64,000 nucleotides of DNA, from the sequence record PV805638.1; one strand, written 5' to 3'. Shown piece by piece: positions 2,682 through 46,355 of the stretch. A program made the translations under genes and the position numbers. Position 1 is the first letter of the stretch. Each line of letters starts with the position of its first letter. The notes beneath the pieces are model-generated. The model did no database searches. It had not been told where the DNA came from and worked only from the letters and a program-made list of their open reading frames with translations. This stretch comes from a phage.

Positions 2682-2990
2682 TTGAATGAAATAGTATGCA
2701 TACTTCCACACTTAGCTAAAGTAGCTGATAGGAATATACGGATACATTTACCCTTCCCATTAAGTAACCCATTCACTCGTAATGAAAGAACCACAGTAGA
2801 GGATATAGAGGTAGCTTATGAAGCTTACCTTCGTAATCGTCTTATTAGTGGTGACAAATTAATTACAGCAGAGATGGAAAGGATTGCTGGCTTTGTCACA
2901 GATAGTACAAAGAAACCTGTTGGTTTAATTGGTACTGAATCTGATGTTAACGTTATTCGTAAAATATTAATGGAGGCATTAAGCCAATGA
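2682..2990 (+). CDS. hypothetical protein (TTG start)
   Basis: ORF 102 aa; AGGAGA RBS upstream; stop overlaps next ATG (ATGATG). Confidence 0.5.
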   Translation: MNEIVCILPHLAKVADRNIRIHLPFPLSNPFTRNERTTVEDIEVAYEAYLRNRLISGDKLITAEMERIAGFVTDSTKKPVGLIGTESDVNVIRKILMEALSQ

Positions 2991-3208
2991 TGTACTCAAA
3001 CGATTATGGTATATGCCCAGTCTGTAAGAAAGGACGTGGAGTTGCCAATCATAAGCGTTGTAGTCGTATATTGCAGAAGCAACGGAACCAGGAAGAATGG
3101 GCTAAGGTGCTGGAAAATCAGCATAAAGAAGAGAATCAACAGATGGCTGTTAGGGCATCTACTCAACGTATTCGCCGTATTAACTATATACAGGGGTATC
3201 AGAAATGA
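2987..3208 (+). CDS. hypothetical protein with CPVCKK motif
   Basis: ORF 73 aa; coupled ATGA junctions on both sides. Confidence 0.5.
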   Translation: MMYSNDYGICPVCKKGRGVANHKRCSRILQKQRNQEEWAKVLENQHKEENQQMAVRASTQRIRRINYIQGYQK

Positions 3209-5103: not shown

Positions 5104-5107
5104 GAAG

Positions 5108-5120
5108 GGTGCTCCGCACC
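5108..5120 (+). promoter_or_regulatory. vRNAP-type hairpin early promoter candidate (GGTGC-TCC-GCACC)
   Basis: Third copy of the GCTCCGC 5-bp/3-nt hairpin, just after the stop of ORF 4753..5103. Confidence 0.5.
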
Positions 5121-5135
5121 TTAAGGAAGTAATCA

Positions 5136-5365
5136 TGGCAGTATCCATTCAGGAAATCATTGTTAAGAGGCACAAGAGAAAATGGGAAAGCTATTACAAG
5201 CTAAAAGAAGTAATTAATGCTGCTTACCTTAGTAAAACAGGTCATGCCAAGATTGAGCTAAATAGTGCATGGCCTTGGAGACATAACATCTATACAGATA
5301 ATCTAATCCTGTTCTATAGCTATGGAAATGAGCATAAGGGTAGCTGTCTAGTTGTAATAATGTGA
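5136..5365 (+). CDS. hypothetical protein (76 aa)
   Basis: ATG 5136 with AAGGAAG RBS downstream of hairpin 5108..5120; ORF-track start 5078 lies inside the previous gene. Confidence 0.45.
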
Positions 5366-32890: not shown

Positions 32891-33609
32891 TCTGGTAGGT
32901 GGCTCAGAAGCTGCTGCTAGGTGTGGTAGTGTTTATAGTTCTGATGCTACTACTGGTCAGGATTATAGACGTGTCGGCTCCATACATAGCTTTTATCATC
33001 ACTGTCATTATCCTGTGGAAATGCAGTGGTAAACACGGTGGTGACAAGCCGCCAGAATAACAACAACCGAACCAGTGGATTGGAATACTCTCCCCAGTCC
33101 ATTGGTTCAACCGAGGCTGATATGAACAAATTTACTATTCACTGGCTCAATGGAAAGGTTAGTTCTTTCATGGGTGGAGAACCTGTTGAAGGAAGCATTG
33201 AAAAAGAGTAGTTAATATCGTGAAGGGTTCTGTTAGAATCCTTTGAGATAGGAACTCCTATCATAACCATTCTTAACTTAATCCTGCCGTATGGCACTGA
33301 CGCTAGGGGTGGCCCCCCATCCGTCAGACAGACTATTTTAAGAATAGGTTATCACAGAAAATGTAAAGCAACATTTGGGTTAATCAATGGCCTCTCCTAT
33401 AGGGGCCATTTCTGAATCTCAGGCTATATCCCAAAGATTAGTGTCTTTGGGATAAGGCTTCAGATCCCTTATCAAACTAACGCTCATGTTGAGCACAACA
33501 TTAACCAATAATGTCGGATAGTTCGTTACGCTATTCATTCAGCATCGAGATGTTAGGTCTTACATGTAAAATAAAACATAGGGTAAAGAGGGACTCATCC
33601 TCCCTCTCC

Positions 33610-33925
33610 TATTATAATGGTCGAGGTAGCACGTAGGCATGTGTAGAAGGTCGCTACTTCTCTCGCTGGTTCGAGTCCAGATGCCGGAACCAATTCGTGA
33701 GAACTCTTATCTTGGCTACCGGGAAAGGAGTGAAAAATATTCGTAAACTACTCCCCAATTAGGTTCAACTCCTAAACCAGGGTAAGTGTTCTCACAAATT
33801 GGAAGAATTAAGACGGGTCTGGTGAAGTAGATGGGGTTCGATTCCCTCCGGTGGAGTAATCCACTAGCGTGCTTGGTGCACGAATAAGACTTAATACTGG
33901 TGGTTCGATTCCATCCCCCGTTACC
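33610..33925 (+). tRNA. tRNA-like elements: three T-arm motifs (GGTTCGAGTCC at 33668, GGTTCGATTCC at 33835 and 33902); cloverleafs not verified
   Basis: Three canonical T-stem-loop motifs in 250 bp of an ORF-free region, one followed by ...GGAACCA; I could not close standard acceptor stems by hand. Confidence 0.3.
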
Positions 33926-34335
33926 CGAAGTCGCCAGGTACTTATGGCAAACAACGAGGTAGTAACGAACTAGTCATTCGTCAAACGCCTCACCTAATTA
34001 TGAGTCAGCAAGAGCGCCTTCACTTAAACTTAAACAAAAAAGCTTAACGCAATAATTATGTAGGGGTATGTAAGGATTGCGAAGAAGGAGCCAGTTAGAG
34101 CCTGGCATGACTCTCCCATTTAGCAGTAACATAGTCCTGATTGCATAGCACTCTAAAGACAACACTGGTAAGACAGTCCAGTGGCTGCTAATGTATTGAT
34201 ATTCCCCTCGACGGGAATTTCGCTAGTGAAGGTAACACTTAAAAATCCAAACCTACGTCTTACTACTATCGGGCTATCAACCCACTAGTGATAGTAGTTT
34301 GACGGCCTGCCTCGTTGACTGCGTTAAAGTCACTA

Positions 34336-34372
34336 AGTCCCTCGGAGCCGTCACTCTGGGGGACTTTTTTAT
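34336..34372 (+). terminator. terminator-like hairpin with U-tract at end of ORF-free region
   Basis: AGTCCC...GGGGACT stem followed by TTTTTT. Confidence 0.5.
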
Positions 34373-34803
34373 TTGAGAACTACTTATTGGACGATTCATA
34401 TGATTGACCTAATCTTAACCCCGTATGCCTATGAGGTAACGGATAACCGAGGACGTAAGTCTTTGGTGTTTGCAGGTAGCGTAGCCTATAACAACGCAGT
34501 CATGTTTAAATACAAACTTAAACCGCTCTATGAGGCTAACAATGGAATTTGATGATTTAGATTTTGAAGCTATTGAAAAGGCGAACCAGGAGAAACTGGA
34601 ACAGGCTAATCGTGAAGCTGAAGAGTTGGAAAACGCTAAAGATAACAACGATTGCACTAGTGGTGGTTGCACCATTTAACAAACAGGTATATGGTAGTTT
34701 TTACCGAAAGGTACTAAACTACCCGACATGTAGTAAGGCTCATGAAGCCAAAACAAAACAAGCCCTCTTAGTGAGGGCTTTCTCATATCTGTAGGAAACT
34801 ATT

Positions 34804-35034
34804 ATGACGCAAGTATCTATTACCTCTGTTGTTCGTGAAGCCATTCTCAATAATACCGTCCGTACGTATTCATTCGATGAAATCGCAGAGAAGCTAGGAG
34901 TAACTCGTTACGTAGCTAAAAAACTCTACTTCACATTCCTATGGTTCCCTACGGAAGAAACATTACGGAAGATTAAAGAGACTGGTAAATTTCCAAGTGA
35001 AGGACGTAAGCCTAAAATGTGGAAAACACCCTAA
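34804..35034 (+). CDS. small putative HTH DNA-binding protein
   Basis: AGGAAA RBS; FDEIAEKLGVTRYVAKK HTH-like; followed by bidirectional terminator. Confidence 0.45.
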   Translation: MTQVSITSVVREAILNNTVRTYSFDEIAEKLGVTRYVAKKLYFTFLWFPTEETLRKIKETGKFPSEGRKPKMWKTP

Positions 35035-35043
35035 CTTCTAAAA

Positions 35044-35077
35044 GCAAAGCCCCTCTTTTGAGGGGCTTTCTTATTTT
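35044..35077. terminator. bidirectional intrinsic terminator between convergent gene blocks
   Basis: 9-bp hairpin AAGCCCCTC-TTTT-GAGGGGCTT flanked by A-run and T-run; between + gene end 35034 and - vRNAP stop 35076. Confidence 0.7.
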
Positions 35078-38000
35078 AGTTTACTAAGTTCATCCAAGGG
35101 TTTAGGTTGTGAGCACGAAGCCCCTGACCAAAGCCCCATGAGTAATCCAGACTACCCTTAGCAGCAATACTAAAGATGTTGTCCTGAATAGGTAAGCCAA
35201 CGTTACCAAACATGGTAGGAGTTGGAGCCAGCATCGCCATTGCTGCATGTACTGGGTTATTGCGAATCATGGACACTGCAACCTTAGCTGAACGAATCTT
35301 AAAGTTGTAGAACCACATTAAACCAACGCTTTCCATATACCCACGGAAACGGCCCGGCAGACGGTCATAGTTAATGAACTCTTCGGTTACACGTCCCAGT
35401 GCTTCTTCACGAGTCTTACCTTTACGCTGGGTCAATTCATCATAGATGATTGCTTTAGCGATAAAGTCAGAGTACTCAACCGTCTTCTGGATACCCTGGA
35501 ACAGAGCAGTATCCTTAGTGATAAGTGCATAACGACCAGCAGCACGTACAGACTTAGGTAACTTATCCGCCAGCTTTTCCATGTATTCGTGAAGTTTACC
35601 TTCAGTAATCAGGATGTCATCACGACCAATACCAGCATCTGCAATTGAAGAGAACTCACCAGCTTCTATCAGAGGCCAGATACTCATACGCTTATGGCTA
35701 TCAGTAATGGACTGAATCTCAGCCTTAAGTTTACGAATCTGGTTCGGGTTAGTAGCTGCACGTAATTCTGCTTCTGCATCTACCTGACGTAAACGAGATT
35801 TAAGGTACTGGTTAATCTCAGCAGTCTTCCGTGGAATGCTCTTAGCAATGTTCTTAACCGGTACACCACGAGCAACCATCTGGTAAAGGTTAGCCAAAAA
35901 GTTAACAACAGGTACGACTACTGACTTAACTACAATCAGAGTCTTAGCATCTTTAACTAAGTTTTGAACCAGGTTCTCACCACCCATTAAGTACTTATAG
36001 GCACGGTTACCGGCTAAACCCAGAATAGCTTTTTTAAAGGTATTAAGCGTTTCCGGGGACCAACGAGAATTACCAGACCAAGCATCACCAATCGAAGCTG
36101 CACGATAGCCAAGTGCATCATTCAGCATGTCCCGACGTACCCACAGTTCACCCTCACCAAACAGTTTTTCTGCTTTCCGTCGAGTTTCGCTGTTCATCAG
36201 CTTAAGAGCATCAGCAGTTACTGGGTCCAGTTTAGAACCAAAAAGGTTCACGTACTGGGACTTATTAGCAGCAGACATCTTAATGTCTTCCTTGTACATG
36301 CTATACAGGTTCTCAATCAGCATATCGTTGAAACGCTGAGCCTTAGCTTCTTCCACCTGACGACCACGCCATACACCAATTGCACGGGCAAGATGATTTT
36401 CACCTTCAATATGCTTCAGCATATTAGGGTTAATTGATTCCTCATAAGCAACCACATCACCTTTAGCATTATATACGGGCAATAGTGGTTCATTACCACG
36501 TTCACCACGAGCTAGTGCTTTAGCGATACGGTCTACAGAAGGCTTGTCAGTAATACGACCAGCTACCATGGAACCCATCGTAAAGCCTGTACCGAGGTCT
36601 ACACCACCAGCAGTATTACGAACGTTCTGTAGAATACCTTGTGAGAACGGAGCCTGTGCCTGTACTGGGGCAAAGTAGTAGCTACGTGCCAGACCTCGGT
36701 TAGCAGAGCTACCTTGATAAGTACTCAGACGTACATAGGACTTCTCTATCAAATCACCAAACTGGCTATCTTCAGCAACAACCAGACTAACACCCTGTTT
36801 AGTCTCACTAGGGATATACCCTTTGTACTGGTTCAGGGTTGCACGCATATTAGATTTGGCTTTAGCCATTTCATCTTTACGCTGCCCAACCAGGTAAGAA
36901 GTAGCAAAGTCCATTCCCTCAACTTCTGTCTGAGCCAGTGAAGATAACATCTCACGGTCGGACTTGTTCATTGCTTCCAGTGCATACAGGGTAATAAGTT
37001 TATCCAGTTGAGCTACATCTACAATAGAGCGAGTAGTCTTACGTTCACCTAACATACGAGAGATTGCAGTAGCATTCCGCAGCAAGTTTTTACCGACTGT
37101 GCCATTAATCATGTACTGAGCCAGTTGCTTAGATTTACGGTTAATCAGAGGCCAGTTACGACCAGCTTGTTTCTGCAAATCTGCTTCCAGCTTATTCACT
37201 TCACGGTCAACAATCTTCTGGTCAGATAGCAGGTCACGGATTTCAGCCAGAGACATGGTGTCACGCAGGACAGCTAAGTCAGTTTTACCCATACCAGTGT
37301 ACATTGCTTTCCACTCATCCTTAGTCAGCTTACGGCTGAACTTAGATGCGATAGTGGTAGGCAGGTGTTCACGGAACTGCTGACGGTCAGCCTGCACCTG
37401 TGCACGAACTGCTTTAATCAAATCGTATACAGAAGCATTACTCTTAGTACGACCGGTTAAGTCATTAACCAGGTCATGGAAAGGTTGCCATACTTTACCC
37501 TGGTTCATTGCAACCATAACGCCTTCAGCTACGTTTGCACCATTCTTCTCTGTAGCAATAGCAGCCATTAGTTGTGCAGCATGAGCAGCACCCTTAACCA
37601 ATGGATTTTTGGTATTGGCTGCAACTTCACGAGCACTTTCTAAAACACGGGTAGACAGTACATCAATAGAGTCCACCAAATACTGGTTAGCACGGTCAAT
37701 AGCATTACCACTAGGAGTAGCAACGGAATCATAGAATGACTGTGCATTAAGGCTAGTCTGCATGATTGTTTGAGCCAGTGCATCCATACCTTCCTGTACG
37801 TTGGTAGCTTTAGTGTCACCTGCTACACGAGCATTCAGGCTTGCCATTGCAGCAGTACCAATGTTAGTCAGCATTGCATCGACGGTATTCCCAGATTTCT
37901 TATCTGCTTTCATAACAGGAATGTTAGCCAGTACATTACGTACCTCTTCACTTACCATTGCCAGACCAACAAAGGTAGGCAGTATTGAAGAACGACCCTG

Positions 38001-41000
38001 CGCATCAAACTCAATATTGTTAGCACCCATGATGGTATCGAACTTCTGCTGTGCATAGTAACGGTCAGCAGGGTTAGTACTATCTGGGTCAGTCATGAAT
38101 GATTCAACAGTCAGGTTCTTAGTAACGTGTGCATAGTATTCCTGTGCACGAGAAAGAGCAGCCGGACTAATAGCAGCTTCAGTAGCGAGTGCAGCAACAA
38201 TGTTAGTAAAGAGACGCTGCTCCTGCATATTCATAGTGAAGCCATGAGCCTGAACATCACGGGTTACTTTAGTTGCGTGCTTTTTCGCATCAGAGAACTT
38301 ACCTTCACGGATTACTTGCTGTACTGGTTCTGAACCAATGTAGTTAGTAATCAGCTTATCAAATGTCTGTCCTAACTCTTCCAGACGGGTATTGTCACCA
38401 TATGCTTTGTTATGGAACAAGGTAGTATCTTTGGCTACAGCAGCCGTAGGAGCCTGTCCACGCATAACTACTGAAGAGTTAAACAGTAAGCCAGAGAACA
38501 TATCATCTGCATTAGCAGGTGCTTTCTTGCGACCAAATACCAGACGTTTGATTGCTTCATATACTGACTGAACCATGGCTTTCAGTGCAGTGGTCTTCTT
38601 CTGCTTACTAATTAATTCACGGTTAGTTAAGCCCCAAGCCATGTACTCATTCAGTGCAGCAGCTTTAGCCATTGCTGGTTCAATAAAGCCGTTAGACAAG
38701 TGACCATTAATGGTATTAAGTGCATCAGCATATGCTTCACGTACTGCCGGAGATTCATCCATAACATCCAGATTACGGAACTGGTTCATCAAGTCTTCAA
38801 TATTCTGGACTGCTTCATTAGGAGTACCCTCATAGTGAGCCAGTACAGATTCAAAAGTAGAAGCATGTACTAATTCATGAACCAGAGTCTCTAGGGAAGG
38901 GGTAACTAAGTAGATGGTTTTATCATCAAAGTTAGTCCAGCCATACGCATTACCAGCTTCGGCAGCTTCAATATCTTCCGGTGCTGGACGAGTAATGTTC
39001 TTCTCAATAGCATAGGCATCCAGTTGAGCAGGAGTACCGTAAACAACTTTGTAGTCTTTAGCAGCAAGGGATTTCTGTATCTCTTTCAATACTGCTTGCT
39101 GTTCTGGAGACATCTCTTTAGCCAGCTTGGTAATAGCAGTATTAGACAATAGACGTACACCAGACTTAAGTACACGACCAACTTGTTCCATTGCTGGCAC
39201 TTCTTTAACAGGTGCTTCTTTAGTAGGTACTTCTTTCACTGGATCTGCTTTAGCAGCACGTACTGCATCACGACGCTTATTTAATTCAGCATCAAACAGT
39301 TCGTTCAGCTTAGCTACTTGCTGGTCTACAGTCAGTCCCTCAAGAGAAATTTTACCGTTGTTCACATAAGGAGCACCTACAGCAGCCATCTGGTCAACAG
39401 TGGTCTGTACCTGGTTCATTACTTTGTGGCGAATATCCACACTTAAAGCAATGTTACGCAGGTTACGCTCAATAAGGTTAACACCTGAATTCTTAATCAT
39501 ATCAATCTTATACTGCCTGTCTCCCTCAACGCGACTGATATGAGAAAGCTGTTCAAAATCTAAAGCGGAACGGGCAATGTCATCAATTGTCTTATCTGAC
39601 AACTTATCAAAGTCTACATTCTTCAAGAACTCAGAGAAGGATTCATATACAGCCTTGATAGGATTCCCCTGCCAGGAAGTGTATACAGCCTCGTTTGCTT
39701 TACGACTTGCATCAGTGATGTCACTAATACCAATGTTCATACCATCAAAGATTTTCAGGGTATTCTTCGGAGCACCTTTCATAGTAGAAAGGGTCTGCAT
39801 CATCATGCCATCACCAGTACCGATGGTCATAAATGGAATACCTGCAACACCTGCTTGTGAAGGAGCATAGATGCTCATTGGCACACGCATACGGTCATCT
39901 AAGTTGGTAGCCAGTACTTGGTTAGCAACGTCAGTACTCTCACTGCCAGCAAGGTAGAAAGTCTGTGAGCCAGTCTCAATCATTGGAGCCAATGGAGATA
40001 ATGATTCCTGGATTTCATTCAGTTCTTTCTGTGTTAAGAAATCACCCTTCTTCCAGGTTGGGTCTTTTTCTTTTTCTGCTAGCTTAGCCTGTACTGCTTG
40101 CTGGAACATATCCTGCAATACCAGAGACTGAATCTGAGTAGCCTTCTGCAAGTTCTCAGTAGAGTACATCAGACCTTCACCAACAGTATTACGGATACCG
40201 GTACGCATTGGCTCAACGAACAAATGGAGCATGTTCTCTTGTAAGTTCTTCAGAGCATTACCGGATACGGTAAATTTCTGAGGGTCTAACTTACCAGTCA
40301 GAGCACCATCTACTTCCTTAATAAATAACTTACCTTTACGCTTAGCTGGAATCTTACCGGTCAGTGCTTCCATAGAAGTAAGGAAGGTATCCAGCATAGC
40401 CTGAGCATCTGCCTCAGACGCAGCCTCCTTACCAAACATTGCCATAGCCGGGGAAATGCTAGGGTCAGCAGCACGTGCTTGCAGAACGTCGCTGAAGCGT
40501 TCGTAGATGGTGTCAGTAATTGCACTGACCATCTTGCCAGCAATACCACGAGCACCAGAACCATAGATGGTAATGGTCAGAGGGTTCTTAGCGATACCAC
40601 GTTTCAGGTCCAGAGTACCATCTTCATTCAGGTTAAAGTCTTTAATGAACAGGTCCATTAACTTCTGGAGATGATTTATCTGGTTCATAACTGGAACGTT
40701 GTTACGGTAAGTAGTACGTAACTCATTCAGTGCTTGTTGCAGACCATTGGTAGATGCTTCATACAAGTCAACATTATCGTCGATAGAACAGTGTTCGTTC
40801 ATCGTTTTACCAGCGCGACCGAAGAACAGTCCACCTTTAGCAGTGTTCTTAATCCAGTCTGGGGTGAACTTACCACCAGTCATTAATACCATTGCGTTGA
40901 TTGGGCCGTTGGTTACACCATCAGCTTCAACGTACAGAGGGGTAGTAAAATTAGCACGGTCATCACTGTTCAGGTAACGGGCATATTCCATCAGAGCCAT

Positions 41001-44000
41001 GAGAGCTACGAAGGATTTGTTATCACCCAGGGAAGACTTCAGAATATCTACTGCATCAGTAGGTAAGTAGCCAGACTTATCAAACTCGACCATCATATCA
41101 ACAGCAGGTTTCAGATTACCTTCCAGAGCTTTGGTCAGATTTTCAGACATAGCTTCACGGGACATTTTATGTACCTTGATGCCCAATGCCTGAGCCAGAC
41201 CTAGCTGGAAGTCAGAGAACGCTTGGCTGTTTTCATTACTTAAGTCGATAGTAGAGAAGGTTGGCAAAATTGCTTCACGAACCAGCTTACTGGATTGTGG
41301 GTTATTTTTACCAAGCATCTGCATACGACCTACACGGGTCATGTTATAGCCATAGTGAATGGGAGTATCCAAACCATTCTCTTGTTCTTTTAGCTGATTA
41401 ATTAAACCGAACAAGGAATCATATGCCATAGATACTGATAAGTTCTTACCTTCCAGAGATTTGGCAGTGTTTTCATTCAGCAAATCAGGATTAAGAGAAC
41501 CAGCACCCATCAGTTCCAGAATGCCGTCACGCCCCAATGCTTCATAGAAGTTAACCATCGGCATGTGTACACGGAACTCGGTAGCCTGTTCAGCTTTCAG
41601 AGCAGCTTTCTGTTCAGGGGTATTCTTAACAGCAGGGTTACGTAACTGAGTCTGAGCCACAGAAGGAATGTCATCACCAAAGTACATTTTCTCTTCTGGT
41701 TCTAAGAGGACAGCTTCCTCAATAGCAGTAGGGAATTTGTTAATGGCATCATTGTCATCCAGTTTCTCAATAGTATACAGACCAATGGTCTTATTGGAGT
41801 CTGGGTCAATCTCAGACACATCCAGCATAGACTCTTTAACTTCACCCATCTCAATGAGGGAAGACAGAATCTCTGTAGCCATTGCCATTGGGATACCTTT
41901 TGTATAACCCAGTGGTGCATTAGGATTACGATTCAAACCCCAATAAGATTCAATCTTCTGAGCCAGTGAGTTAGTAGCTTCGACCAGAGTCTGGGCATTC
42001 TCGAACTCAGCCAGAATACCTTCTGGTAACAGAGATGCATCTACACCAGTAATAGCAGCTACGTCTTTCATGTCTTTAATGGCAGCATTCTGTGTAGCAG
42101 TCAGTCGCCATTGCAGACCAGCAAGTACAGCAGTCTCTAACAACTGGTCATTAAACTTAAAGGTGTCACCATCACGTTCAACGATATTCAGCAGTTTGCC
42201 ACCTACCCAACGGTTAGCTTCAGTACCTTCTGCAAAACGCTTACCAACGTTCTTGTTAGCAAGGAACTTAGCCAGTCGTTCAGACAAAGTAGTCTTCAGA
42301 GTTTCCCCAAAGTCCATCAAGTCTTGATAACGTTCTAACACATCACCTGTAAGAGCGTTATTTTCTTTTTGAGTGAACGCTTCAAAGCGAGCAGCAGAAG
42401 ACAGTGCTTGCTTAATATCAGCCAAAGGGGATTCTGAACCAATGGTACGGGACTTAGGTTCTTCCGGTAAGGTAAACGCCTTCAGGAACTGGTTCGGTGT
42501 CTTCTCATTGTTATAGACAGGGAACACTGTTTCCATTTCAGAAAGAGGTTTGCCACCTACTGTATAATCTGCTTTCAATTGAGCCAGTGATACTTCATCT
42601 TCCTCCGCGTTGTTAGTGTTAAGACCAGAGGTATCTACACCAACCAGAATATGTGCATTATTGGCTTCAACGAAAGACTGAACAGTATTGAATTGTTCGG
42701 CAGTCAGTTTCTGATTATCGAACAGCTGTAAGGACACAAACGGGTGTTCACTGCCTTTATAGAACATAGAGCGAATAGCACCTGTATCCAGAGACATATC
42801 ACGATAACCATCATGACCAAATACATCGGACAGGCTGATATGGTCGCCATTAGAACCAACCACAGTACCATCAGCAAACAGCCATGGACTTTCTCTATGG
42901 TCACCATACTTATTAAGAGTTTCCTGTGAAATAGTATTTTCTTTCACATAGGCATCTCTTTCAGATTCGGTAGGTTGCTCGATGGTATCCTCATTAGTGG
43001 GGGTAGCATCATCTACAACCGGGCTAGTCTTTTCAGACTTAGGTACTTTCTCTTCCTGTGCAGGTGTAACTTCTGGCTGGGAGAATGTATTACGTACATA
43101 GTTCATAAAATCATTACGTGCTTGAGAAGGAGAAGACCATACTTCCCGTGTGCTACGTAAACTAAAGATTCGACCTTCAGGAGTCATTACGTAAGGTACA
43201 TTTGTTTCACCGTACTTAAATGAAGTGAGTACATCTGACTTACCAGTAACAGTGCTTTCCCCTGGAATGACAATAGTCTTACCACCAGTAGAAGGAGCAG
43301 CACGAACACCCTCAATATCCTTACCAAGAGAAATATACTCTTTACCGTTGTAATCAAAGTACTGACCTATCTGCATATAGGTAGCTTGTTGCTTACCAGT
43401 AAACTCAGCAGTTTTCATCTCCGGGCCGTTAGGTACAGACGTACTTTCAGACTTAGGCTTAGATACTTTCTCTGGTTCTGACTTAGACTCTACAGTGTTA
43501 GGAGCAGTTTTATTGTTTACCACTGGTTTAGCTTTAGACTGTACAGTAGTGACTGGTTCCTGTGTTTTTACAGGTGTTTCATTAACCTGATTCACTGGTT
43601 CATTAGCCTGTTGAGACTGAGTGGCATTAAGACCACCTTGACGGAACTCTTTAACTACCTGGGCAGCTGGCTTGTTCAGACGTGAATCCAACGAGGTAAC
43701 TTTCACATGAGAAACATTAAGCTCCGGGTAAGCCGTAGCAAGTGCATTAGCAATATCAGCTACGGTCTTAGCTTCCAGTGCTACTTGCTGGGCAAACTTA
43801 ACAGACTTGGTATCGTAAGGATTGACACCGAGGCCAGTACGACTACGTACCCATTCACGAGTAGGTGTGAGAGCCTGATAATGAACAGACTTATTCTTAT
43901 CCGCATTCCCAGAAATCAGATGCTCATTCAACGCTCCGACCTTATTCTGCATGTGCTGGGCGAACTTCATAAAATCGCTCAGATAAGCGGAAGCCAAATC

Positions 44001-46355
44001 GAAGTTACCAGAGTTATACGCAGAACGAATGCGTTTCGCATGTTGCAACGCAGAGTACTGTCCTTCATTAGAACGAGACTCGTCGGTTTTAATCTGTTTA
44101 CTAACGATATCTTGACGACGTAAGCCCAGTTCTTCTGCTTTAGCATCATACTCACGTGCACCCTGTAATAGAGCAGCAGCTGATTGCAGGGCAGCACGTT
44201 GACGATTATTCAGTGTAATCTTACCTTCACTCGCATGCTTCAGAACCATATTCACTGAATCTGCGTCCAGTACTTCTGGGGATACATCAGCAGCCATAGC
44301 AATGTTGTTTGCTTGGGCTTGGTTAGCTTCTTCAGTAGCTTTCAGCTTACCTGCTTCAGCCTGTTCCTGAATCATAGAATGGATGGCACGGAATGCACGA
44401 AGTACTTTAGGGGTATTCTGTATGTTAGCCATCAGGCCGGAGAACTGGTCTACGATTGCAGCAGCAGGAGAACCTTGTTCCAGATTAGCCAGAGCACCTG
44501 GGTCACGGTTAATGAAGCTATCCATAGACATGATATTGTCATACATCTGGATTGCAGCTTCCATTTGAACGTTAGGGTCTTCAGCAGTATTAACCAGGTC
44601 AGCCATCTTCTGAATAGCTTCCACACGGTTAGTGGAACCAGAAACGGCTTCACGGATTACTGGGTTAGCTTGTTCCAATTCTACTGGGTCAAACTTCATT
44701 GCCTGAGTTAAGTCAGCAGCATACTGGGTAGCAGCAGCCTTCTCTTCCGGAGTGATATCCATTGCATCTACTGCTTCCTGTACGGTTGCCTGTGCTTGCT
44801 CTGCTTGAGCAGCAGCTTCCTGTGCAGCAGCATTAACCGTAGCATCAGCTACAGGGGATGCTTGTTCATTACGCTTAGCAACTTCTTCACCACGTTGAAC
44901 CAGGATGTTAGTAAGAGGAGATGCAGCTTTTGCTAATGTTTTACCAACCAGAGAAGCACCAGCCAGAGTAGTACGAAGAGCAGGACCAGCAGCAGCACCG
45001 GCAGCTTTAACGGTTGCACCAGGAGCTTGAGCAACCCCAGCACTACCGAAGCCATAGAGTGCACCAAGACCAGCTTGCTCACCGACACCTTTGAGGGTAT
45101 CTCGGGATGCATCAACATTTTCCTTGATTGCACGGTTCTGTGCGAACTGACCAAAGCCTGATTGAGTACCCTCTTCAAAAGTCTGAGCACCAAGGTTAGT
45201 AAGGGCTGCCCCAGCAGAACCAACCCTCATGGGGTTAAGTTCAAACTTAGATACTAACGGACCCATAGCAGCAGCAACTGGAGCAGTTAAGCCAGCAGCA
45301 ATGATACCTGTTTCGGATGCAGTCTGACGACGTGCTTCATCAGGAGATAAACCATCAGCAATATGTTGTTGGTAAACAGGAGACTTACTTGCCAGTTCTG
45401 GATGGGACATCTTCATGATTTCAGAAGCAGTCTGTTGGTATGCACCACCAGCTTCCATACCACCGATTGCAATAGCAGGTGCAGCAACACGACCAGTAGA
45501 CAATGCAACCTGTGCAGGACGTGAACCTAACCCAGCAGCTAAGGTAATACCCTTAACAGCTTTATCACCACCTACCATTACTTTACCGAGTGCAGATACA
45601 CCACGGATAAGAGGACCACCAGTAAAGAGGGAACCAACACCTTCACTCAGTCCATCTGAGGCAGCCATACCATTATCAAGTGTATTAGCAACAGAGTCGA
45701 AAGCATCACGACCAATGCGAGACAGGGAGGCAACCAAATCGCTCTCCCCGTTTTTAATGTCCTGTTCATAGAGTTTCTGATTCTTTTGGGCAGAAATCTG
45801 GTTCTGATTCTGAACAACTTTACGGGTAGCATTCAGTGCATCAGACTGTAGATTGTGTACGCCTTCATTCAACCAATCCATCCCGGAAGCAATGGTTGCC
45901 CCGGCATTATCATTGACCAGACCTGCGCCAAGAGCAGCAATGCCCCCAAGGGTATTAGCAACACCAAGACCAACACCAGAAAGAGTATCGCCAAATGCTT
46001 CTGCGTTAGTACGCTGCTTAGATAAGTCCTGACGTACAGCATCCGCAGCATTAGCTCGGCTATTAAGAATCTGTAGACCTTGCTCATTACCGTATTTATT
46101 AATGATTTCTAATGGGGAGGCTTGAGTGAAGTCTGCCTGAAGTGAACCTGGTTCGAATGCACCGATTCCAAGATTACCTACTCGTCCAGTCTGGAGATTG
46201 TAAGCATTCTCTGGGGTTAATCGGAAAGGGCTTTGCCCTTGTGCAGCTTGCTTCTGAGCGGTTGCAGTAGAGACATCGACTTGCTTAGCATTAGTGATGC
46301 TGTCTGCGAAACCTGCCAGACGGTCAAATGTTGACATAGCATGTTTCCTGTTCAA
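35076..46355 (-). CDS. virion-encapsidated giant RNA polymerase (vRNAP, N4 gp50-like)
   Basis: Single 3759-aa ORF; size and position at head of late block are the hallmark of N4-like phages. Confidence 0.85.
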   Translation of the reverse strand: MNRKHAMSTFDRLAGFADSITNAKQVDVSTATAQKQAAQGQSPFRLTPENAYNLQTGRVGNLGIGAFEPGSLQADFTQASPLEIINKYGNEQGLQILNSRANAADAVRQDLSKQRTNAEAFGDTLSGVGLGVANTLGGIAALGAGLVNDNAGATIASGMDWLNEGVHNLQSDALNATRKVVQNQNQISAQKNQKLYEQDIKNGESDLVASLSRIGRDAFDSVANTLDNGMAASDGLSEGVGSLFTGGPLIRGVSALGKVMVGGDKAVKGITLAAGLGSRPAQVALSTGRVAAPAIAIGGMEAGGAYQQTASEIMKMSHPELASKSPVYQQHIADGLSPDEARRQTASETGIIAAGLTAPVAAAMGPLVSKFELNPMRVGSAGAALTNLGAQTFEEGTQSGFGQFAQNRAIKENVDASRDTLKGVGEQAGLGALYGFGSAGVAQAPGATVKAAGAAAGPALRTTLAGASLVGKTLAKAASPLTNILVQRGEEVAKRNEQASPVADATVNAAAQEAAAQAEQAQATVQEAVDAMDITPEEKAAATQYAADLTQAMKFDPVELEQANPVIREAVSGSTNRVEAIQKMADLVNTAEDPNVQMEAAIQMYDNIMSMDSFINRDPGALANLEQGSPAAAIVDQFSGLMANIQNTPKVLRAFRAIHSMIQEQAEAGKLKATEEANQAQANNIAMAADVSPEVLDADSVNMVLKHASEGKITLNNRQRAALQSAAALLQGAREYDAKAEELGLRRQDIVSKQIKTDESRSNEGQYSALQHAKRIRSAYNSGNFDLASAYLSDFMKFAQHMQNKVGALNEHLISGNADKNKSVHYQALTPTREWVRSRTGLGVNPYDTKSVKFAQQVALEAKTVADIANALATAYPELNVSHVKVTSLDSRLNKPAAQVVKEFRQGGLNATQSQQANEPVNQVNETPVKTQEPVTTVQSKAKPVVNNKTAPNTVESKSEPEKVSKPKSESTSVPNGPEMKTAEFTGKQQATYMQIGQYFDYNGKEYISLGKDIEGVRAAPSTGGKTIVIPGESTVTGKSDVLTSFKYGETNVPYVMTPEGRIFSLRSTREVWSSPSQARNDFMNYVRNTFSQPEVTPAQEEKVPKSEKTSPVVDDATPTNEDTIEQPTESERDAYVKENTISQETLNKYGDHRESPWLFADGTVVGSNGDHISLSDVFGHDGYRDMSLDTGAIRSMFYKGSEHPFVSLQLFDNQKLTAEQFNTVQSFVEANNAHILVGVDTSGLNTNNAEEDEVSLAQLKADYTVGGKPLSEMETVFPVYNNEKTPNQFLKAFTLPEEPKSRTIGSESPLADIKQALSSAARFEAFTQKENNALTGDVLERYQDLMDFGETLKTTLSERLAKFLANKNVGKRFAEGTEANRWVGGKLLNIVERDGDTFKFNDQLLETAVLAGLQWRLTATQNAAIKDMKDVAAITGVDASLLPEGILAEFENAQTLVEATNSLAQKIESYWGLNRNPNAPLGYTKGIPMAMATEILSSLIEMGEVKESMLDVSEIDPDSNKTIGLYTIEKLDDNDAINKFPTAIEEAVLLEPEEKMYFGDDIPSVAQTQLRNPAVKNTPEQKAALKAEQATEFRVHMPMVNFYEALGRDGILELMGAGSLNPDLLNENTAKSLEGKNLSVSMAYDSLFGLINQLKEQENGLDTPIHYGYNMTRVGRMQMLGKNNPQSSKLVREAILPTFSTIDLSNENSQAFSDFQLGLAQALGIKVHKMSREAMSENLTKALEGNLKPAVDMMVEFDKSGYLPTDAVDILKSSLGDNKSFVALMALMEYARYLNSDDRANFTTPLYVEADGVTNGPINAMVLMTGGKFTPDWIKNTAKGGLFFGRAGKTMNEHCSIDDNVDLYEASTNGLQQALNELRTTYRNNVPVMNQINHLQKLMDLFIKDFNLNEDGTLDLKRGIAKNPLTITIYGSGARGIAGKMVSAITDTIYERFSDVLQARAADPSISPAMAMFGKEAASEADAQAMLDTFLTSMEALTGKIPAKRKGKLFIKEVDGALTGKLDPQKFTVSGNALKNLQENMLHLFVEPMRTGIRNTVGEGLMYSTENLQKATQIQSLVLQDMFQQAVQAKLAEKEKDPTWKKGDFLTQKELNEIQESLSPLAPMIETGSQTFYLAGSESTDVANQVLATNLDDRMRVPMSIYAPSQAGVAGIPFMTIGTGDGMMMQTLSTMKGAPKNTLKIFDGMNIGISDITDASRKANEAVYTSWQGNPIKAVYESFSEFLKNVDFDKLSDKTIDDIARSALDFEQLSHISRVEGDRQYKIDMIKNSGVNLIERNLRNIALSVDIRHKVMNQVQTTVDQMAAVGAPYVNNGKISLEGLTVDQQVAKLNELFDAELNKRRDAVRAAKADPVKEVPTKEAPVKEVPAMEQVGRVLKSGVRLLSNTAITKLAKEMSPEQQAVLKEIQKSLAAKDYKVVYGTPAQLDAYAIEKNITRPAPEDIEAAEAGNAYGWTNFDDKTIYLVTPSLETLVHELVHASTFESVLAHYEGTPNEAVQNIEDLMNQFRNLDVMDESPAVREAYADALNTINGHLSNGFIEPAMAKAAALNEYMAWGLTNRELISKQKKTTALKAMVQSVYEAIKRLVFGRKKAPANADDMFSGLLFNSSVVMRGQAPTAAVAKDTTLFHNKAYGDNTRLEELGQTFDKLITNYIGSEPVQQVIREGKFSDAKKHATKVTRDVQAHGFTMNMQEQRLFTNIVAALATEAAISPAALSRAQEYYAHVTKNLTVESFMTDPDSTNPADRYYAQQKFDTIMGANNIEFDAQGRSSILPTFVGLAMVSEEVRNVLANIPVMKADKKSGNTVDAMLTNIGTAAMASLNARVAGDTKATNVQEGMDALAQTIMQTSLNAQSFYDSVATPSGNAIDRANQYLVDSIDVLSTRVLESAREVAANTKNPLVKGAAHAAQLMAAIATEKNGANVAEGVMVAMNQGKVWQPFHDLVNDLTGRTKSNASVYDLIKAVRAQVQADRQQFREHLPTTIASKFSRKLTKDEWKAMYTGMGKTDLAVLRDTMSLAEIRDLLSDQKIVDREVNKLEADLQKQAGRNWPLINRKSKQLAQYMINGTVGKNLLRNATAISRMLGERKTTRSIVDVAQLDKLITLYALEAMNKSDREMLSSLAQTEVEGMDFATSYLVGQRKDEMAKAKSNMRATLNQYKGYIPSETKQGVSLVVAEDSQFGDLIEKSYVRLSTYQGSSANRGLARSYYFAPVQAQAPFSQGILQNVRNTAGGVDLGTGFTMGSMVAGRITDKPSVDRIAKALARGERGNEPLLPVYNAKGDVVAYEESINPNMLKHIEGENHLARAIGVWRGRQVEEAKAQRFNDMLIENLYSMYKEDIKMSAANKSQYVNLFGSKLDPVTADALKLMNSETRRKAEKLFGEGELWVRRDMLNDALGYRAASIGDAWSGNSRWSPETLNTFKKAILGLAGNRAYKYLMGGENLVQNLVKDAKTLIVVKSVVVPVVNFLANLYQMVARGVPVKNIAKSIPRKTAEINQYLKSRLRQVDAEAELRAATNPNQIRKLKAEIQSITDSHKRMSIWPLIEAGEFSSIADAGIGRDDILITEGKLHEYMEKLADKLPKSVRAAGRYALITKDTALFQGIQKTVEYSDFIAKAIIYDELTQRKGKTREEALGRVTEEFINYDRLPGRFRGYMESVGLMWFYNFKIRSAKVAVSMIRNNPVHAAMAMLAPTPTMFGNVGLPIQDNIFSIAAKGSLDYSWGFGQGLRAHNLNPWMNLVN

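Follow-up and report, generated by a model that had tools for sequence, protein, structure and literature searches.

The 64,000 nucleotides of phage DNA analysed here (record PV805638.1; hereafter the window) contain, at 33212-34400, a non-coding island that is probably best understood as the transfer RNA (tRNA) island of an N4-type phage devoid of tRNAs: a + strand series of conserved and structured non-coding RNAs that ends at a terminator and in which two elements, E4 and E5/6, have a role of their own. The island carries one hybrid pseudo-tRNA, E1, and at least two covariation-supported tRNA-like or T-loop RNAs that are shared with T4-like phages, and no decoding tRNA gene is left in it. 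The tRNA clusters of phages are generally regarded as supplements for codon usage or anti-defence, and the parts that are not called as tRNAs are left blank or labelled 'tRNA-Undet'. Here the tRNAs are dispensable, while the non-decoding tRNA-like RNAs are kept and are common to unrelated phage families, which points to a selected function apart from decoding. E4 and E5/6 constitute two RNA families supported by covariation, unannotated and absent from Rfam.

An initial annotation, made from the sequence alone, had drawn attention to three T-arm motifs in the island, and these lie where it placed them, GGTTCGAGTCC at 33668 and GGTTCGATTCC at 33835 and 33902; a fourth, variant T-loop, GGTTCAACTCC at 33762, had been overlooked. 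With both strands of the window scanned, the pattern GGTTCRANTCC matches four times, always on the + strand and within 33668-33912, against a mean of 0.25 matches in shuffled sequences, none of 100 of which reached four. The longest open reading frames in 33212-34400 comprise 41 amino acids on the + strand and 55 on the - strand, in line with the earlier statement that the + strand has none of 60 or more. What do the four T-loops belong to? The initial annotation had offered unusual tRNAs, tRNA-like non-coding RNAs or remnants. Our analysis shows that one RNA of 111 nt, E5/6, contains motif 2 and motif 3 as its two T-arms, all five of its helices being maintained by compensatory changes, and that the variant motif at 33762 represents the T-loop hairpin in a second conserved RNA, E4. 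Thus, tRNA-like RNAs are the right description for three of the four T-loops (two in E5/6, one in E4, each with compensatory changes), whereas motif 1 is the only one to which the term remnant applies, as a hybrid of a tRNA-Ala and a mini tRNA-like RNA. The proposal of unusual tRNAs was not supported for any of them.

For E5/6, we aligned 11 sequences, seven from Gamaleyavirus, one from Klebsiella phage KP8 and three from T4-like phages (alignment A1). RNAalifold assigns 26 pairs to five helices, 12 of the 26 being compensatory with at least one such pair in every helix, and 99.7% of the cells hold standard pairs. None of 500 shuffles reached the observed values, and in slid controls, in which the 3' partners were moved by one to three columns, pairing was 41-62% and compensatory pairs numbered 0-2. 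The closing stem illustrates the extent of the exchange: it reads GACGGG/CCCGTT in the window, GGTGGG/CCCACT in UE-S5b, GGCAAG/CTTGCC in KP8 and CATGGCG/CGCTATG in VR5, the T4-like copies having seven pairs. The unpaired junction nucleotides are invariant. Since 37 G-U cells of the alignment would be A-C mismatches on the opposite strand, the + strand is the RNA strand.

Like a canonical tRNA, E5/6 has a canonical T-arm and an acceptor-like stem, and its 3' end is of the NCC type. T-arm 2 lies next to the closing stem, as it does in tRNA; there, a T-arm with a 5-bp stem and a TTCRANY loop stacks on an acceptor stem of 7 bp, whereas the closing stem of the window copy has six pairs and a mismatch and is separated from T-arm 2 by one unpaired C. 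N-CC-N follows directly 3' of the closing stem in seven of eight N4-like sequences, the CC lying one base further on in pSb-1; in ShWW44, ACCA is encoded. It differs from tRNA in possessing two T-arms instead of one and neither a D-arm nor an anticodon arm. A covariance model of E5/6, R1, scores the window copy at 148 bits and genuine tRNAs at 12-19 bits, although it aligns the latter end to end. Because of these scores and of the two absent arms, E5/6 is not a tRNA; it is a tRNA-derived or tRNA-like RNA.

Outside the N4-like phages, sensitive blastn searches find E5/6 in the T4-like myoviruses VR5, VR25, PEi20, TH15 and TH40 at ~80% identity, in VR5 20 nt downstream of a tRNA-Met and 7 nt upstream of a tRNA-Arg. 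The cassette appears to have been exchanged between N4-like podoviruses and T4-like myoviruses, in whose tRNA clusters both E4 and E5/6 occur with tRNA genes nearby. In IMG/VR and in metagenomes, strict pattern scans yielded no lineages beyond these, and a loose scan for double T-loops combined with R1 brought up mostly adjacent tRNA pairs, that is, a T-arm followed by the next tRNA. Candidates for real distant relatives of E5/6 are the loci L076 (67% GC, 36 bits), L109 and L040/L075; they belong to unrelated phages, score 27-36 bits, have the same five-helix layout, lie away from tRNAs and have methylase, SSB and HNH genes as neighbours.

The second RNA, E4, was aligned from 10 sequences of N4-like phages and Yersinia T4-like phages. 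Here RNAalifold gives 35 pairs, 17 of them compensatory; 95.7% of the cells are paired as compared with 35-50% in slid controls, none of 500 shuffles reached the observed values, and the z-score of the minimum free energy (MFE) is -5.13. The core of the junction hardly varies, whereas drift is free in the sequence of the helix. As with E5/6, many G-U pairs hold only on the + strand, and the E4 covariance model, R2, scores higher there (125.8 bits against 35.6 bits on the - strand), so that both RNAs are to be read from the + strand. E4 was found in G7C, Moonfish, N4, the Klebsiella phages Pylas and KpCHEMY26 and Salmonella phage SP-058, as well as in the Yersinia T4-like phages TG1 and phiR1-RT, where it lies between tRNA-Met and tRNA-Arg; in phages Jura and AL25 it is recorded as 'tRNA-Undet'. 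Two weaker matches to R2, at 26-32 bits, lie in UE-S5b (L002 2110-2200) and KP8 (L019 529-622). That of UE-S5b keeps the long closing helix and the downstream flank of a Pylas-type E4 with a different core, and the long helix of E4 may be a scaffold hosting alternative cores. The slot of E4 can also be occupied by E3, a tRNA-like element of ~125 nt whose acceptor stem has 7 bp (TATCAGT/ACTGATA) and which also bears a canonical T-arm and encodes ACCA (UE-S5b, L002 2588-2715; also PhAPEC5, ShWW44 and PhAPEC7). Among 14 phages tabulated, E3 and E4 are mutually exclusive.

Motif 1, finally, belongs to E1, a non-functional hybrid which is shown to have arisen by a deletion of ~520 bp, from T-loop to T-loop, between a tRNA-Ala(CGC) and the element E2. 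The 5' ~55 nt of E1 derive from the tRNA-Ala(CGC) and are joined to the 3' end of E2 (..CCAGATGCCGGA-ACCA), with the junction in the T-loop, within the shared CTGGTTCGA, at ~33666-33676 (alignment A3). The GGAACCA that had been noted after the first motif is indeed present (33685-33691) and represents the 3' acceptor strand of E2 with its encoded ACCA. Phage Moonfish has the same fusion as the window, and both parents are present in ShWW44, L009 and L014, which possess a good tRNA-Ala(CGC) according to ARAGORN and E2 ~520 bp downstream of it. In E1, the acceptor strands no longer pair and no cloverleaf forms; its fold is no better than that of shuffles (z = -0.57, as compared with -3.2 for an intact tRNA-Ala), and ARAGORN calls it at lowered thresholds only, with two mismatches in the acceptor stem. 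E1 thereby resembles the hybrid or partial tRNA genes that result from recombination, being a fusion of two tRNA-type genes at a shared T-loop with a non-pairing acceptor stem. The likeness is limited to E1, and its parent E2 is itself non-canonical: a 66-nt tRNA-like element that has an acceptor stem of 7 bp, UA, GGU, a single long hairpin whose loop measures 4 nt, a T-arm and an encoded ACCA, and which is identical in N4 and UE-S5b and shows compensatory changes in KP8, where it is annotated as 'tRNA-OTHER'. In the turnover of such islands, deletion between near-identical neighbouring T-loops yields hybrid pseudo-tRNAs that are able to mislead annotation.

Table 1. Features of the island and their positions in the window
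Feature	Position	Strand	Basis and remarks
Leader, highly structured, with three hairpins (33297-33327, 33386-33410, 33416-33465)	33212..33500	+	Inverted repeats I1, I6, I8
Hairpin, 7-bp AGAGGGA/TCCCTCT flanked by TAGGG/CCTAT	33575..33616	+	Inverted repeat I11; just upstream of the tRNA-Ala-derived segment
E1, dead hybrid	33619..33692	+	Alignment A3; holds T-arm motif 1 (33668)
E4, structured RNA, ~110 nt	33691..33801	+	RNAalifold, 10 sequences; variant motif at 33762
E4 closing helix, ~25 pairs	33691-33717 / 33775-33801	+	
E4 hairpin P2 (GGAGUG...CUACUCC), on three-way junction	33727-33732 / 33749-33754	+	
E4 T-arm-type hairpin, on three-way junction, loop TTCAACT	33760-33763 / 33771-33774	+	
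E5/6, double-T-arm tRNA-like RNA, 111 nt	33812..33926	+	Alignment A1; motifs 2 and 3
E5/6 acceptor-like closing stem	33812-33817 / 33917-33922	+	RNAalifold
E5/6 T-arm 1	33833-33836 / 33844-33847	+	RNAalifold; motif at 33835
E5/6 hairpin P3, loop GUAA	33850-33855 / 33860-33865	+	RNAalifold
E5/6 hairpin P4, loop UUGGU	33868-33872 / 33878-33882	+	RNAalifold
E5/6 T-arm 2	33899-33903 / 33911-33915	+	RNAalifold; motif at 33902
E5/6 3' end	A33923, then CCC	+	
Spacer, Gamaleyavirus-type group only	33927..34060	+	blastn mapping; 92% identical in G7C-like contig L014
E8, conserved non-coding segment	34061..34262	+	71-73% identity to N4 and KP8
Intrinsic terminator closing the island	34335..34375	+	13-pair stem (34335-34366), then TTTTTTATTT

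Could the elements nevertheless decode, as unusual tRNAs, for example intron-containing or odd-armed ones, that escape the standard detectors? Their canonical T-arm sequences, acceptor-like stems and NCC-type 3' ends would fit such a view, as would the labels 'tRNA-Undet' or 'tRNA-OTHER' given to homologues in some records and the weak ARAGORN calls over the elements at 80% thresholds. We consider it highly improbable, however. ARAGORN finds no tRNA or transfer-messenger RNA (tmRNA) in the whole window in default mode, in agreement with the initial report that no canonical cloverleaf could be folded, and none in intron or metazoan-mitochondrial mode; at relaxed settings, it returns the broken E1 and mutually overlapping junk calls. 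The Rfam tRNA model RF00005 (gathering threshold 29 bits) has no match in 33000-34600 even at E ≤ 10, as compared with 43-78 bits for the true tRNAs of relatives, so that the detectors find neither canonical nor odd tRNAs. An anticodon arm, with its conserved 5-bp stem and 7-nt loop, is absent from the structures of E5/6 and E4: the inner hairpins P3 and P4 of E5/6 have loops of 4 and 5 nt, respectively, in the N4-like copies, the closing pair of the latter covaries, and the T-arm of E4 is not adjacent to its terminal helix.

Other known RNA families fare no better. Infernal searches with Rfam 15, a check proposed by the initial annotation, yield no match at gathering thresholds, and at E ≤ 10 only tmRNA T-loop fragments of 11-13 nt at 6-11 bits. 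The tRNA-like domain of tmRNA is indeed comparable in combining an acceptor stem and T-arm with a stem-less GG 'D-loop', but the matches in the window reach just 10.9 bits against the gathering threshold of 47 of RF00023, and neither a tag reading frame nor pseudoknots are present. Of the elements E2-E8 and the T4 RNAs rnaC and rnaD, none is represented in Rfam 15, the islands of relatives and the T4 region yielding canonical tRNAs only. A host or prophage origin was also rejected, as blastn obtained no match in any of 5,426 E. coli genomes and a pattern search obtained none in the species representatives of GTDB. In literature searches on N4-like and G7C phages, tRNAs and tRNA-like RNAs, no description of these RNAs was found; the KP8 paper mentions only two unidentified 'tRNA genes'.

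The genomic context places the island among the tRNA regions of related phages. The window derives from a G7C-like, N4-type coliphage (Gamaleyavirus, Schitoviridae); in a megablast search, 33100-34500 matched 67 phage records, headed by vB_EcoP_G7C with 96%. Upstream of the island lie + strand homologues of N4 gp45 (SSB), gp46 and gp47, and downstream, beyond ~680 bp of small + strand reading frames, the virion RNA polymerase gene (3,759 aa) on the - strand at 35076-46355; the earlier placement of the region at the switch from + to - strand genes is thus approximately right. So is its description as a common place for tRNAs in N4-like genomes. The island is the counterpart of the gap between gp47 and gp48 of N4, in which N4 and most relatives have tRNA genes. 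In N4, the RefSeq annotation of this gap is empty, yet ARAGORN calls a cluster of tRNA-Asn, Ser, Thr and Pro in this same slot, which also holds homologues of E2, E4 and E8. Close relatives are annotated there with tRNA-Ile, tRNA-Ala, 'tRNA-Cys', 'tRNA-Xle' or 'tRNA-OTHER', and G7C with terminators only. Our comparison shows that the island is homologous to the tRNA regions of N4, KP8 and Gamaleyavirus and is a mosaic of cassettes. In a presence/absence table of 14 phages, E5/6 occurs in 11 and E8 in 13, while the tRNAs come and go: most relatives have a tRNA-Ile(AAU) at the site corresponding to ~34114-34120, where UE-S5b adds a second tRNA, and the site is empty in the window, N4 and KP8 and filled with a 134-bp tRNA-free insert in G7C. 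The tRNA-Ile of the relatives (L002 3289-3364, L003 3162-3240, L005 2596-2674) has the unusual anticodon AAU, in one record under the name 'tRNA-Xle', and its 3' end is ACCC rather than ACCA.

With so much rearrangement, the whole region might be taken for a graveyard in which tRNA genes decay as functionless pseudogenes and the T-arm motifs are the pieces that disappear most slowly. Motif 1 fits this picture exactly, since in it two genes are fused and the acceptor stem is broken, and the intact tRNA-Ala and tRNA-Ile of relatives are missing from an island that has visibly been reshaped by deletions and insertions at short repeats. For the region as a whole we nonetheless judge it very unlikely. 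All helices of E4 and E5/6 are kept by compensatory changes across families whose DNA is otherwise without detectable similarity, E5/6 is 100% identical in the window and G7C as compared with 94-96% in its flanks, and the unpaired nucleotides at its junctions do not vary.

A precedent for non-decoding RNAs in a phage tRNA cluster exists in T4, and the purpose of its species 1 and 2 RNAs is a 50-year-old question. T4 makes these two stable small RNAs from its tRNA region, and according to reviews and an omics study of 2022 their roles are unknown (PMC3014915, PMC9697503). Species 1 (rnaC) measures 139 nt and species 2 (rnaD) 119 nt, both beside tRNA genes. They are ~120-140 nt long and, like E4 and E5/6, non-coding and encoded in a phage tRNA cluster on the strand of the tRNAs; rnaC is similar to E5/6 in position and size. 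In rnaC, as in E5/6, a canonical T-arm adjoins a stem formed by the 5' and 3' ends, and ACUUAAUA just upstream of the T-arm is common to both; rnaC has one T-arm, E5/6 two. While ACUUAAUA and the T-arm made homology of E5/6 and rnaC a promising candidate, R1, run with filters off, gives rnaC 16.1 bits, a value in the range of 12-19 bits seen for ordinary tRNAs, and VR25 carries both RNAs, so that the resemblance is retained as an analogy. VR25 (L026 2775-3219) has rnaC, rnaD and E5/6 side by side, and TG1 (L033 3955-5614) has rnaC and E4; because of this co-occurrence, rnaC and rnaD are separate genes from E4 and E5/6. Searches with rnaC by blastn matched 748 phage records, confined to T4-like phages and including none that is N4-like. 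E4 and E5/6 therefore probably add to the kind of RNA that rnaC and rnaD represent, as their companions rather than as members of those families. As a side observation, the tRNA cluster of a T4-like phage may accommodate, side by side, at least three distinct structured RNAs that are not tRNAs.

Bacteria provide another point of comparison in the tRNA mimic YrlA of M. smegmatis, an RNase P substrate to which CCA is added (PMC4201824). The Y RNAs are non-decoding, occur in bacteria and phages, and combine a tRNA-like module with canonical T-arm with a long helix of the 5' and 3' ends, as in E4, from which they differ in the order of the modules. A link to YrlA and Ro60 was rejected: the Rfam YrlA and Y RNA models gave no match even at E ≤ 10, and no gene for a TROVE domain lies beside the distant candidates. 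The Ro-binding motif GNCGAAN(0-1)G was not seen by eye in the E4 helix, and the neighbours of the island in the window are gp47-type small proteins and the virion RNA polymerase, no Ro60 context being seen in this neighbourhood.

What, then, could be the physiological role of E4 and E5/6? RNase P, the 3' trimming enzymes, the CCA-adding enzyme, TrmA and TruB recognise the minihelix formed by the acceptor stem and T-arm of tRNA. Judging from the sequence, the island most likely represents one non-coding transcript that would be cut into stable, non-decoding tRNA mimics. In this scenario, the island would be transcribed as a single non-coding precursor, and the tRNA-maturation machinery of the host (RNase P, 3' trimming, CCA repair, TrmA/TruB) would recognise the coaxial acceptor/T-arm minihelix of E5/6. 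E5/6, and probably E4 as well, would thereby be released as a stable small RNA that mimics tRNA but is unable to decode. Several points weigh against this reading. Transcription, processing and stability of the island RNAs are all inferred from sequence, and a promoter of the island was not identified, sigma70-like hits (e.g. 33212-33239) being not above chance. The closing stem of E5/6 in the window consists of six pairs and a mismatch, with one unpaired C before T-arm 2, and does not make a perfect 12-bp minihelix; in the T4-like copies, CC is not encoded at the 3' end. Moreover, the alignments are shallow (10-11 sequences, effective number ~1.1-1.3) and many of their rows are close relatives, so that the counts of compensatory cells over-count evolutionary events.

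Alternatively, the two RNAs could act in cis only, as a kind of punctuation that signals processing by RNase P, RNase III or RNase E and confers stability, with no function as free RNAs. The ~25-bp helix of E4 resembles a substrate of RNase III and E5/6, by its structure, one of RNase P; both RNAs lie between tRNA genes in T4-like phages, and CCAATT / AAATTGG recurs at the junctions of cassettes. An exclusive cis role is unlikely, however, as the islands of the window and G7C have neither a tRNA nor an mRNA to release and the single-stranded junctions and loops, invariant in both RNAs, exceed what a cleavage signal needs. Since these two tRNA-free phages keep E4 (97% identical) and E5/6 (identical), the RNAs must have a role of their own beyond aiding the processing of tRNAs. 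Together, G7C and the phage of the window offer a natural tRNA-free background for the genetics of E4 and E5/6.

As to what this independent role might be, our preferred but speculative guess is that E4 and E5/6 engage or draw away a factor, of the host or of a defence system, by which the tRNA elbow and the acceptor end are recognised. In tRNA, G18 and G19 dock on the T-loop, and two conserved GG dinucleotides of E5/6 (33821-33822 and 33875-33876) could, by analogy, dock on its T-loops in the same manner; the two T-loops and the two invariant GG would then form two tRNA-type elbows, which is speculative. Carried further, E5/6 would be an undescribed class of phage RNA, a 'two-elbow' tRNA mimic that acts in trans as a decoy or adaptor for a factor reading the elbow and acceptor, and E4 an unrelated T-loop RNA with a function of its own. 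We put this forward tentatively and regard it as possible rather than probable. In structural terms, it may comprise an acceptor/T-arm minihelix and an internal second T-arm, with a conserved GG capping each T-loop. Candidate factors would be RNase P, the CCA-adding enzyme, a nuclease or toxin with which defence systems target tRNAs, or the contact of the ribosome with the tRNA elbow. If this reading is true, E4 and E5/6 together could also help to show what the species 1 and 2 RNAs of T4 are for.

The structured nature of the region had also led to the suggestion of a replication origin, and DNA-level hairpin promoters for the N4-type virion RNA polymerase would be a related alternative. The region is free of sizeable reading frames and rich in hairpins, and the cumulative GC skew has its maximum near 34 kb. 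Yet this maximum, obtained in the GC-skew analysis that the initial annotation had proposed, coincides with the switch from + to - strand genes, where transcription converges. No iterons occur in the region, the only direct repeats being the T-loops and two 10-mers, and no AT-rich unwinding stretch, the GC content of 43.7% equalling the average of the window and the most AT-rich 60-nt segment reaching 70% AT; an origin was rejected accordingly. Promoter hairpins of the GCTCCGC type (5-bp stem, 3-nt loop) occur at 91, 770 and 5111 and not in 33212-34400, so that this candidate was dropped as well, and the many G-U pairs that are valid on the + strand only indicate structure of RNA and not of DNA. 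That the region serves either of these DNA-level functions is thus barely conceivable. The three promoter hairpins themselves (+ strand, 85-115, 764-795 and 5105-5135) read ..GCTCCGC.. followed by TATGGA or TAAGGA and closely resemble the early promoters of KP8 and N4 listed in PMC6950046; the window therefore starts at the early (left) end of the genome.

The remaining parts of the island differ in their distribution. The leader is nearly invariant over 10 Gamaleyavirus sequences, with too little variation for a covariation test, and the MFE z-score of 33240-33500, -6.05, is far better than that of shuffles. Three hairpins had been described there as perfect and free of a U-tract. A T-run is absent after each; the hairpin at 33386-33410 has a perfect 7-bp core inside 10-nt arms and that at 33427-33454 a perfect 10-bp core extending to 22-nt arms, but the first, at 33297-33327, exists without being perfect, as its 13-nt arms are 77% complementary with perfect outer and inner segments of 6 bp and 4 bp. 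The leader is confined to Gamaleyavirus-type phages except for 45 nt at 33445-33489, on the 3' side of the third hairpin, for which phiEco32-like (Kuravirus-type) coliphages give a match of 84%, the sole similarity seen to those phages. At the hairpin just upstream of E1, relatives keep a hairpin in place with a different stem sequence. E8 contains a covarying hairpin, 34163-34168 / 34178-34183, and alignments A5 and A6 show five compensatory pairs. The terminator-like hairpin reported to close the region was recovered by our scan; terminators are annotated at the homologous site in G7C (rho-independent), PhAPEC5 and PhAPEC7, and N4 and KP8 have one in the same place with a different stem sequence.

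Between the terminator and the virion RNA polymerase gene, most relatives have homologues of gp48 and gp49 (L003 3679-4666, L005 3027-4014). In the window (34400-35076) and in G7C, only the ~680 bp of small reading frames are found there, the gp48 and gp49 homologues apparently being missing. The gp49 homologue is a DUF2829 protein, annotated in Moonfish as 'Thoeris anti-defense 2-like'. On the upstream side, G7C has a gene for an HNH homing endonuclease, gp47.1 (L001 990-1487), at a point that corresponds to the junction 33087-33093 of the window, which lacks it. The T4 tRNA cluster likewise houses a homing endonuclease gene, segB, and such genes may drive the turnover of cassettes in tRNA islands. 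The cassette junctions repeatedly consist of ACCAATT or AAATTGGAAGAATTA (window 33690-33700 and 33795-33810; L002 2582-2590 and 2712-2720), which may mark a joint left by recombination or, between the RNAs, a site of RNase E-type cleavage. A further conserved non-coding element of ~100 nt (GTAACAGTTAAATCCAGTTGCCGGAAGTGCAA...), absent from the window and without an Rfam entry, lies at ~5225-5325 in N4 (L015) and at 2911-3017 in UE-S5b (L002). Its closing stem is fully compensated, reading GTGGGATG/CATCCCAC in N4 and TTGAGGTG/CACCTCAA in UE-S5b.

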